A DNA stretch of 63,625 nucleotides, filler included, from Dugesia japonica (lineage: Eukaryota): the NCBI GenBank assembly GCA_001938525.1. It is 5 parts of 5 records of this genome, joined end to end, with 100 filler letters (N's around TTAATTAATTAA, not from the genome) between each part and the next. Parts side by side here need not be neighbours in the genome. Positions count along the whole stretch, not along the records: positions 41,117 to 54,901 come from MQRL01614574.1; 4 more parts are not named here. One strand, 5' to 3'. Made by a program: the position numbers and the translations under genes. Below are positions 50,555-53,275 of the stretch, in pieces (position 1 is the stretch's first letter; the number at the start of each line of letters is the position of its first letter). Under the pieces are notes generated by a model. That model was given only the letters and a program-made list of their open reading frames with translations. It had not been told where the DNA came from and made no database searches.

Positions 50555-53275
50555 TTATGTAATAAATTTAACAGCTACTGATTTTAAATAAATTTTTTCT
50601 GGTAAAATTATTACAATATAATTTATTATTTTATCTTTATTACTTTCAGTGCTTTCACGATAAATTTTTATATTATTATTTTCAGGTTTTAAATATTGAT
50701 ATGATATTGCTTTAGTATTAATTCTAATGGTGTATGTAAATNTTTCAATTACACAATAACCTTCTACATTTATACTAATTTTTCTATTAATGTTTGTATT
50801 TAAAAAAATAGAAAAAGGTTCTTTAAGATAGAAATCTTTTTCAACCATTTCACCTTTTCATAAAAAATATATATTATTAACATATTGATCCATAACAGTA
50901 AAATGTGGAAGATCACTTTCATTATAGAAAATTTAAAATATTGCATTATTAGGCATATTAACATAAGGTAAGTAATTATCAATTAATCCTTGTGCACCTT
51001 TTGGATTTTTAGTTTTATATAAATCATTAATTCTNNNNNNNNNTTTTTTGTGAAGTTTTGATTTTATTCTATCAAAATCTTTATTAACAAAATCTATACT
51101 TAAACTATTTAAATTAATTTCGTGTAGAAAAATTTTTGCAATGTGGTTAATAATGGTTTCAGTGCTTTCATGAAAAATTTTAAAATTATTATCTTTAGGT
51201 GTTATATGANNNNNNNNNNNNNNNNNNNNNNNNNNNNNNNNNNNNNNNNNNNNNNNNNNNNNNNNNNNNNNNNNNNNNNNNNNNNNNNNNNNNNNNNNNN
51301 NNNNNNNNNNNNNNNNNNNNNNNNNNNNNNNNNNNNNNNNNNNNNNNNNNNNNNNNNNNNNNNNNNNNNNNNNNNNNNNNNNNNNNNNNNNNNNNNNNNN
51401 NNNNNNNNNNGTGTATTACTATAAGGTATGTAATTATCAATTATTTCTTTTATTTCTTTAAATGAATTAGTTTTAAATAATAAACTAATTTTATCAATAT
51501 GCATTTTATGAAGTTTTGGTTTTATTTCTTCAAAAATTTTAAAACTATGCAATTTAATAATTACACTCTTTAATTTAATTTCTTTTGGTAAAATTATTTC
51601 AATGTAATTTATATTTGTATCTTTATTAATTTCAATGCTTTCACGATAAATTAATATTTGGTTATTGTCAGGTGTAATATATTCCATTACTATTGGAATA
51701 TTATTAATTTTAATGGTGTAAAGAAAGTTTACAAAATCACAATTACCCTCAATATATATACAAAGATTTTCATTAATGTTTGTATGTAAAATAATAGATT
51801 CTATAATTTTTCCTTTACATTTAAAATCAAAATTGGTAACATGTTTATCACTAATATGAAATTGATGGTTGATAAGTGTTAATATTGTAGTATCATCTGG
51901 TAAAAAAAACATAAGGTATGTAATTATCAAACATTTCTCTTAAAGCTTTGAAATTAAAAGTTTTAAATAAANNNNNNNNNNNNNNNNNNNNNNNNNNNNN
52001 NNNNNNNNNNNNNNNNNNNNNAATATGTTTTTTGTGAAATTTTGATTTTATCGTTTCAAACTCTTTAGATAATTGTTCAAGAATTTCTAATCTACATATA
52101 TTAACACTTAATTCCTTTAAATAAATATCTTGTGGTAAAAATATAATAATAGAGTTTATATTTACATCTTTAATAATTTCAGTGCTTTCTTTCGAAATTT
52201 TAATAATATTATCTTTAGATTTTACATATAAAAATGTTACACTAATTTTATTAATTTCAATGTTGTATTTAAATTCTTCATCTTCACAATAACCTGATAT
52301 ATTTATACTAATTTTTTCATTTATTTTTGTTTCTAATGATAAATAAAAATATTGTTCAAGAAAAAAATGTTTTTTTATGACTTTACCTTTTCTTGTAATG
52401 CGAAAACAATTTACATATTTATCCATAAGAGAAAATTGAGGAAGATCACCTTCTTTATAGATAATTGATAATATTTTATAAGTACTAAACATGTAAACAT
52501 AAGGTCAGTAATTATCAATTAAATTTTTTAAAACCCCAAACCATGTATTTGAAAGTGTTTCTTTATAAGTTTTGAAGAAAAAATCAATGTCATCATTTAG
52601 AATTTTATGTTGTCTTAATTTCACTATTTTAATTTCTTCAGTTAATTTTAAAATTGTGGGTCTAAATTTTTCTATATCTAATTTAATTTTATTAATGAGC
52701 AGCATGTGTGAATCAAAAGTTTTCTTATTTAAATCTTCATGTAAATTATTAATTTTAGTATTTAATATTACAATTTCTTCTTTAATTTTAGGTAAATCAT
52801 CAGCAACTAATTTTTTAAAATGAAATATTAAATCACTTCTTTTATATGGAAAAACTTCTAATCTTAATCTTTTGATGTCATAATCTATTTTATCAAATGT
52901 TTCTTGATTAAAGTTCTTTGTTAAATTTTTAATTTTCTCGTTTATACTTTTTACGTCAACACTTAACATTTTTAATTCATCAACCTTAGATTGTAAATAA
53001 AGTTTTTTAGATGTGAAATTATCAATCTTTAATAATTTCTGAAAAATCAATTCATGTTTTTCTATTTTCTCTTCTAACTGTTTAATATATTTTAAATTAA
53101 CAGCATCCTTTAAATCTCTAGGTTCTTCTGTTATTTTTAAAGATGTAATTGTGTCACCTGTTTCATTTACAAATTTNNNNTCATTTTCTGCATTTGAGAT
53201 TCTAATTTTAGCATCAACATGTTTTAATACTTGTGAATTATTTACACCGAATAAACTCTCACCAAACTTATTCAT
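50555..53275 (-). pseudogene. Putative fibre/spike protein, ~900 codons: N-terminal DAVN motif, coiled coil, four tandem domains
   Basis: ORFs 52505-53275 and 51893-52492 are in frame across one TGA. The motif DNY(L/I)PY recurs at 52508, 51920, 51430 and 50972, and the four domains align with each other. Confidence 0.65.

Follow-up and report, generated by a model that had tools for sequence, protein, structure and literature searches.

Within a 63,625-nt stretch of the draft Dugesia japonica assembly GCA_001938525.1 (hereafter the window, five parts of the genome joined end to end), the part derived from MQRL01614574.1 carries a disrupted gene that we consider, with a probability of roughly 0.68, to have encoded a homotrimeric vertex attachment fibre of a Polinton/adintovirus-type element, since decayed in the host genome. 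This reading is founded on the block of virion-type genes in which the gene lies, an adhesin-type neck, a stalk predicted to self-associate, heads with a predicted binding-module fold, and the lack of any signal or membrane segment. A preliminary description of this DNA had proposed a multivalent receptor-binding spike; the Polinton-type block, the neck, the stalk model and a fold common in binding modules speak for that proposal, while the ligand, the virion location and the trimer remain conjectural parts of it.

In the mechanism we envisage, three chains would zip together at an autotransporter-type DAVN neck that sets the register of the chains, self-association being predicted and the trimer stoichiometry supposed, and a coiled coil of ~190 residues, visible in sequence and prediction alike, would provide reach. 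Each chain would carry four jelly-roll heads (twelve per trimer) with short helical linkers between them. The short N-terminal tail may dock on the penton, whose gene is the second one upstream, with the fibre presumably lying on the virion, and the heads may bind host-surface glycans or proteins with avidity, perhaps with several specificities. The array would have grown by tandem duplication of a head-plus-linker unit, the copies diverging fast while the gene was still coding.

Organization, repeats and decay of the gene

The gene and its parts are as follows, with positions counted along the window.

50555..53275, (-): disrupted fibre-like gene of about 907 codons, with tail, neck, coiled coil and four head units
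53081..53161, (-): neck segment, residues ~39-65, with a DAVN motif, like the beta-to-alpha necks of trimeric autotransporters
52517..53092, (-): stalk, residues ~62-254, predicted to be a coiled coil; its register shifts, and it contains an internal repeat
51929..52516, (-): repeat 1, head (~52516-52100, containing the TGA at 52507-52505) and helical linker with an N50 gap
51439..51928, (-): repeat 2, head and linker; the frame changes within or next to the T8 run at 51902-51909
50981..51438, (-): repeat 3, first half in the N201 gap, with the head's second half and the linker readable
50558..50980, (-): repeat 4, a head without linker, interrupted by stops at 50935-50933 and 50860-50858; predicted galactose-binding-like jelly roll

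On the minus strand, the gene runs from an ATG at 53275 (MNKFG) to a last stop at 50557-50555, spanning 2721 nt or 907 codons, of which 265 nt are N; its G+C content is 20%, and no introns are evident from the break contexts, which were viewed by eye. Its frame is interrupted by a TGA within the DNYxPY motif at the stalk/head border, by a frame change in or beside a run of eight T (A8 on the plus strand), by the N201 gap at 51210-51410, where the frame is unequal on the two sides, and by a TAA (50935-50933) and a second TGA (50860-50858). The single hidden gene of ~900 codons that had been read behind split open reading frames (ORFs) is upheld, in that it reads through with three stops, the T8 frame change and N gaps, and we infer that it is continuous across the N201 gap. 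The breaks originally listed (TGA, T8 slip, N gap and two further stops) are all present, and four smaller N runs of 4, 50, 9 and 1 nt have to be added to them. An alternative genetic code was considered and rejected, as two kinds of stop occur in the gene and the third in the neighbouring protease-like ORF, in addition to the frame changes.

These breaks could be genuine if the pieces were separate genes, such as one for a stalk protein and at least one for a head protein, or were joined by programmed recoding. Indeed, the first stop falls exactly at the stalk/head border, the T8 run is a slippery-type site, the frame across the N201 gap is not readable, and programmed -1 frameshifts have been proposed for adintovirus penton genes (10.1101/2024.03.25.586562; here and below, papers are cited for those portions that were consulted). 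However, the first stop lies inside a DNYxPY motif that is open in three of the four units, the two later stops lie within a folded head, the sequence on either flank of the slip can be aligned to repeats 1 and 4, and four neighbours of the fibre gene are likewise broken, which points to general decay or assembly error. We regard such a split or recoding as improbable. It is also very improbable that the gene once ran on into the hydrophobic ORF behind it, giving a membrane-anchored protein of about 1,100 residues. That ORF is in frame behind the last stop, and the 36 nt past this stop (50519-50554) match the start of the repeat-2 linker (51505-51540) at 22/36 positions on the same diagonal, yet this value only ties for the best of 1,248 in-frame windows, and repeat 1 gives 15/36. 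Moreover, the downstream ORF has an ATG of its own three bases past the stop, as at other tight junctions, and there is no signal peptide for head export; neither a signal nor a membrane segment is present in the fibre protein (Kyte-Doolittle 19-mer maximum 0.47 in the stalk and 1.49 in the heads). The likeness past the stop, if real, would mean that the duplicated unit once spanned the junction with the next gene.

Beyond the stalk, DNYxPY openings at 52516, 51928, 51438 and 50980 mark units of 196, 163, ~153 (gap-dependent) and 141 codons. The four tandem repeats noted earlier are borne out: identities are 48% over 137 aa for repeats 1 and 4, 47% over 114 for repeats 2 and 4, and 37% over 169 for repeats 1 and 2, and none of 300 shuffles matched the score of any of the six pairs, whereas the scores of four repeat-versus-stalk control pairs were reached by 13, 17, 189 and 235 of 300. 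At the DNA level the copies are 68-73% identical, and no fifth copy was found in the window by tblastn. Repeats 1 and 4 are the closest pair, as first described, by score and length, but not by codon-aligned amino acid identity, where repeats 2 and 4 are equally close (0.53 vs 0.50). Similarly, the unit of ~140-195 aa stands as to the four units and needs recasting as to its content, which is a beta head of ~140 residues and, in units 1-3, a helical linker behind it that reaches about 55 residues at most, repeat 4 being linkerless. The three linkers are mutually homologous (0/1000 shuffles in 3/3 pairs); because they also weakly resemble the stalk end (18, 9 and 80 of 1000 shuffles), the duplicated unit may be "stalk end plus head."

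At the nucleotide level, roughly one quarter to one third of the sites vary between heads. Under simulated neutral drift, with base frequencies set by hand, 14% change per copy (half the pairwise difference) would lead to 12.3 stops in 437 codons, with none of 500 runs at three or fewer; 10% gives 9.2 stops, with 1.8% of runs at three or fewer, and 3% gives 2.9, in agreement with the three that the heads actually contain. Most of the divergence therefore arose while the frame was open, and the decay is recent or partly assembly error. The diversification by domain duplication put forward in the preliminary description is accordingly supported, the copies having diverged while still coding. Codon models place the optimum of omega at 0.8 (Muse-Gaut, MG) or 0.6 (Goldman-Yang, GY, at a fixed kappa of 1.5); MG does not reject omega = 1, which is marginal under GY, and values of 0.2-0.3 fit clearly worse, by at least 9 (MG) or 3.5 (GY) log-likelihood units. 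Such values suit exposed binding domains, positive selection and relaxed constraint not being separable by them. Nei-Gojobori estimates (dN/dS 0.8-1.2) were set aside in favour of the codon models because third positions are ~90% A/T. Head identity is only a little higher in strands than elsewhere (22/63 vs 13/51).

Neck, stalk and head fold

The DAVN motif lies near residue 57, and the region after it is long, charged and helical. When a 50-residue piece containing DAVN was compared with PDB sequences, three of the four matches at E<=10 were trimeric-autotransporter-type constructs (3wpo, the best at E 0.0034, 3zmf and 2yo2), aligned on their necks. The consensus DAVNxxQL marks a neck opening a coiled coil (PMC7247746); here, DAVN is present and aligns to the adhesin necks with weak E-values, and the xxQL part differs. 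The adhesin-type stalk motif recognised at the outset is supported as a resemblance to trimeric autotransporter necks. A three-copy model of an N-free piece of the stalk scored 0.36, barely above a mark calibrated on two copies, against 0.00 for the best of three controls, with run-to-run contact agreement of at least 36% and partner pLDDT (predicted local distance difference test) of at least 51. Its interface, residues 9-49 of the piece, comprises the neck and the start of the coil and is centred on DAVN. Among proteins solved as pairs, 21 of 30 attained the mark, compared with 0 of 23 solved as single chains. The model supports self-association of the stalk through its neck; as to the trimeric stalk proposed earlier, it favours association of three copies and does not separate a trimer from other stoichiometries.

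Periodicity of 3.4-3.7 over residues 56-254 was equalled by 7 of 1000 shuffles. The heptad signal is strong in residues 140-254 (1/1000) and absent in 56-140 (321/1000), and of the long coiled coil originally described the former portion is therefore clearly heptad and the latter is not. Part of the stalk has a/d positions rich in Ile, and Ile/Ile cores prefer trimers. Duplication has a further layer in the stalk, where segments spaced by 60 residues (52984-52841 and 52804-52661) form an internal repeat with 77/144 nt identical, which scored 71 against a median best-diagonal score of 14 and was matched in 0 of 1000 shuffles.

The model of repeat 4, with X at the breaks, has ten strands, a pLDDT of 82 and a predicted template modelling score of 0.79. 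Among 48,161 chains, seven matched it at Z>=8, and the top rows tie: the C. difficile binary-toxin binding domain RBD1 (9mui; Z 9.1, root-mean-square deviation 2.9, 113 residues aligned), the turret protein C381 of STIV (Z 8.8, 3.0, 111), CBM61 (Z 8.2, 3.1, 113) and Fbs1 (Z 8.2, 3.0, 115). A second fold search gave a similar list, and the poorer model of repeat 1, a beta-sandwich with a helix at 139-156, points to the same class (Z<=6.8, with C381 at 6.8; no Foldseek match at E<=0.001). Foldseek of head 4 on viral models returned one unnamed match (E 5e-4), and neither the adenovirus knob nor TRAF/MATH is among the best 50 fold rows listed for this head. As modelled, the head is a galactose-binding-like jelly roll, a match at the level of the superfamily, and the fold itself shows no function. 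Consequently, the domain first termed unrecognised is unrecognised by sequence and recognised by fold, the predicted head 4 belonging to a known jelly-roll class at Z 8-9.

Two further explanations of the gene turn on this fold. In one, the product would be part of the virion structure but would play no role as a receptor-binding protein, serving for instance as a decoration, cement or scaffold spike, and its heads could be duplicated capsid-type single jelly rolls. The capsid-vertex jelly roll C381 shares the top fold rank in both models, no Trp is readable in head 4, and adintoviruses possess duplicate pentons and elaborate virion proteins (10.1101/2024.03.25.586562). Yet C381 is itself an attachment protein, and the fast amino acid divergence of the heads (seen in the poorer fit of omega 0.2-0.3) and the long stalk suit exposed binding, and we judge this explanation unlikely. 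In the other, to which we give very little credence, a captured host or accessory gene combining a coiled coil with DOC/F-box/GOLD/TRAF-like domains would have acted inside the cell. Eukaryotic intracellular domains do match at Z 7-8 (Fbs1 8.2, IFT25 7.5, DOC 7.1), and MELD virus maps label TRAF-like genes (PMC8502044). Against this stand the absence of a sequence match in Pfam or PDB, the low G+C content, the lack of evident introns, the location within a virion block and a neck like those of adhesins.

Searches by sequence gave no relative of the proposed fibre. Repeat 1 had none among 1,373 longer candidate proteins; the N-terminal 90 residues had none among 63 longer proteins or, at E<=10, among 36 of similar length; a repeat profile had none among 1.84 billion representatives, and the repeat pattern was confirmed in none of 273 stretches from bacterial and archaeal genomes. 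Fibre pieces had no relative in phage genomes, and the best Atlas match of repeat 2 reached only 0.78. The four head pieces matched no Pfam family at E<=0.1, including no named CBM or lectin family, and the head profile found a single, unrelated entry in PDB (E 0.18). All matches of fibre pieces in Pfam, PHROGs and NCBIfam were below cut-off or at E>0.005; those to DUF7339, VipA and spectrin were taken as coiled-coil noise.

The virion-type block and the weight of evidence

The fibre-like gene sits within a tightly packed block of virion-type genes in which starts and stops of adjacent genes abut or overlap. The other features of this block are listed below.

54489..54833, (-): small ORF with a basic product, 5' of the penton-like gene
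53753..54476, (-): penton (minor capsid)-like ORF split over two frames, an Atlas lead
53268..53711, (-): candidate adenain-like maturation protease with one internal TAG, its end overlapping the fibre start
49947..50551, (-): ORF with a hydrophobic hairpin, split over two frames, immediately 3' of the fibre gene; SLATT/GasderminX-like lead
49198..49950, (+): packaging ATPase of the A32 type, split over three frames and convergent with the block, with N38 at the expected P-loop
54902..55001: assembly join (N44, 12-nt spacer, N44) interrupting the element

Small basic, penton-like and protease-like ORFs thus lie 5' of the fibre gene on the same strand, and the hydrophobic ORF and then the convergent ATPase lie 3' of it. 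The ATPase passes its profile (Pfam Pox_A32, E 1e-5, 25.6 bits vs a cut-off of 22.8, at 49536-49820). The penton-like ORF resembles three unnamed Atlas clusters at 0.98; the nearest cluster bearing a Pfam family is the Sputnik minor capsid V18/19 at 0.94, with that family on 52% of members and a low recognition value that makes it a lead, and no Pfam or phage match was found. This ORF also holds a perfect 30-nt tandem duplication at 54241-54301. By eye, the protease-like ORF shows His, Asp, Gln and Cys in the order expected for adenain, the family to which we presume it belongs, and it had no match in Pfam, NCBIfam, PDB or phage. The hydrophobic-hairpin ORF has a Kyte-Doolittle 19-mer maximum of 2.48 and a SLATT_1 match below cut-off (E 0.099). 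The small basic ORF occupies the position labelled "Cupiennin" in Beta adintovirus maps, and may correspond to that gene. Judged from these genes, the element is provisionally of Polinton type, its class resting on the block with the A32-type ATPase as the member that passes a profile. A 40-nt tandem repeat of higher G+C content at 47997-48095, ~1.1 kb left of the ATPase, has no right-hand partner that we could find, and could belong to the left terminal region of the element.

A number of results weigh against the attachment fibre and its assignment to a Polinton. Among 23 and 53 open segments of the window (five common to both sets, all of at least 75 aa), none matched PolB or a major capsid protein. 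No Polinton integrase was found in the window, where the three rve matches all lie at least 7.9 kb from the element, two of them next to segments of retroelement protease or RNase H and the third no more than 1.7 kb from one of those. Terminal inverted repeats were likewise not found, the left and right flanks being without a match and the right end being lost at the join at 54902. With respect to the neck, YadA_stalk was not matched in Pfam, and part of the PDB score comes from an engineered GCN4 adaptor in the solved constructs. The stalk was modelled at the three-copy stoichiometry, and among eukaryotic proteins 17 of 29 pairs attained the mark, but only one of seven lacking an older solved relative; the result for the stalk may accordingly reflect memory of solved necks. 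With respect to the heads, pLDDT exceeded 75 in two of five AlphaFold models of head 4 and was 50 for head 1; none of the seven matches at Z>=8 stands clear; non-adhesive domains are among the fold matches (DOC 7.1, IFT25 7.5, F-box sugar-binding), as are TNF/C1q at Z ~7; and the readable residues of head 4 are without Trp. Many CBMs use Trp. An omega near 1 equally fits relaxed constraint. Finally, no homologue of head or stalk was found, so the single frame is without confirmation from an intact copy.

As to its surroundings, the window has 25% G+C, comes from a draft eukaryotic assembly, and contains microsatellites, remains of long terminal repeat (LTR) retroelements and mariner elements, and WS/DGAT and RCC1 segments. 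Four identical N44-spacer-N44 marks (8818-8917, 24794-24893, 41017-41116 and 54902-55001) are artificial contig joins, across which adjacency is unreliable. A 382-codon open segment at 44661-45809 (-) carries a WS/DGAT C-terminal domain (Pfam E 1e-18) and is probably a host exon, and an RCC1-repeat segment at 55016-55339 (+), just past a contig join, is probably also of the host. Decayed LTR-retroelement (protease, RNase H, rve) and mariner-type transposase pieces lie at 10070-13124, 62106-63563, 39512-39751 and 56459-57336, and minisatellites with periods of 20, 31, 128 and 13/16 nt at 1206-1658, 22629-22889, 24035-24270 and 36564-37397.

Known fibres and biological meaning

Fibres have been described in related elements. 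Those of cryptophyte Polinton-like viruses (PLVs) bear up to seven laminin-G repeats (PMC12220804), and the Ltf protein of PgVV/Gezel-14T has been detected in particles (10.1101/2022.07.28.501842). The claim that the present architecture is unrecognised in Polintons is weakened by these tandem laminin-G fibres, which share with the gene described here a long modular protein, a Polinton-type element and tandem lectin-fold domains. In contrast to PLV fibres, five pieces of our gene had no LamG, collagen, discoidin, phage-tail-repeat or Peptidase_S74 match (Pfam, PHROG), its stalk is alpha-helical with an adhesin-type neck, and its heads are spaced by helical linkers. An adintovirus map carries a "Fiber" label in the layout text of supplementary Fig. 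S2, and MELD maps also carry fibre candidates (PMC8502044); oomycete Polintons have candidate fibres as well, Polinton virions being unobserved as of that report (10.1101/2023.08.22.554363). The adintovirus virion module likewise groups penton-like, adenain-like, hydrophobic (GasderminX/SLATT-like) and ATPase genes (PMC8502044), but a four-head fibre is not described in the parts consulted, and PolB, integrase and hexon are not seen in our fragment.

Outside these elements, the trimeric autotransporter adhesins (3wpo, 3zmf, 2yo2) share the DAVN beta-to-alpha connector followed by a coiled coil. Unlike them, the present protein has no signal peptide or beta-barrel anchor (neither leader nor anchor profile), carries its jelly-roll heads C-terminal of the stalk, and is encoded in a viral element of a eukaryote. 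STIV C381 (4ind) is a tandem jelly-roll vertex protein of a double-jelly-roll virus that binds host pili in attachment (PMC10551542); it shares tandem single jelly rolls with our gene, and differs in being a pentamer of three domains without a stalk, with 14% identity to the head. Galactose-binding-like modules (CBM61, CBM4, CBM32 and residues ~616-742 of CDTb/iota Ib) have the same beta-sandwich at Z 7-9 yet only 2-12% identity and no sequence-profile match, a resemblance of fold only with nothing suggesting a toxin; the D3' domain of CDTb possibly binds glycans (PMC12303382). In contrast to the adenovirus fibre, the stalk is heptad-periodic and matched no triple beta-spiral shaft profile. 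On the features examined, the gene is outside the autotransporter, S74-type and adenovirus fibre families. Within a partial coverage of the literature, with key supplements outside it, we found no description in Polintons of a fibre combining neck, coiled coil and four jelly rolls, and no paper joining polinton with trimeric autotransporter; the consulted portion of PMC11296320 held nothing relevant to fibre architecture. What is already known, then, is the PLV fibre with tandem lectin domains, and what is new is the neck/coiled-coil/jelly-roll variant.

This finding is limited to a single decayed copy in an assembly with gaps; the fold is a common one, and protist PLVs provide a published analogue. 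Nonetheless, the head represents a domain family without a detectable sequence relative in very large collections, and the literature consulted does not cover cell attachment of non-nematode animal Polintons. A fibre whose neck and stalk are defined and whose heads are soluble is a concrete object for assays, and in the window the stalk piece, like the greater part of heads 1 and 2, is unbroken and usable as it is. We tentatively entertain, as a possible though doubtful history, that an animal Polinton lineage combined a new jelly-roll family with a neck and stalk of bacterial-adhesin type, amplified the head-plus-linker unit fourfold and diversified it under host-receptor selection. If so, each head could have had its own specificity, and the gene would be the fossil of a receptor arms race, supporting the existence of extracellular infectious particles of animal Polintons.

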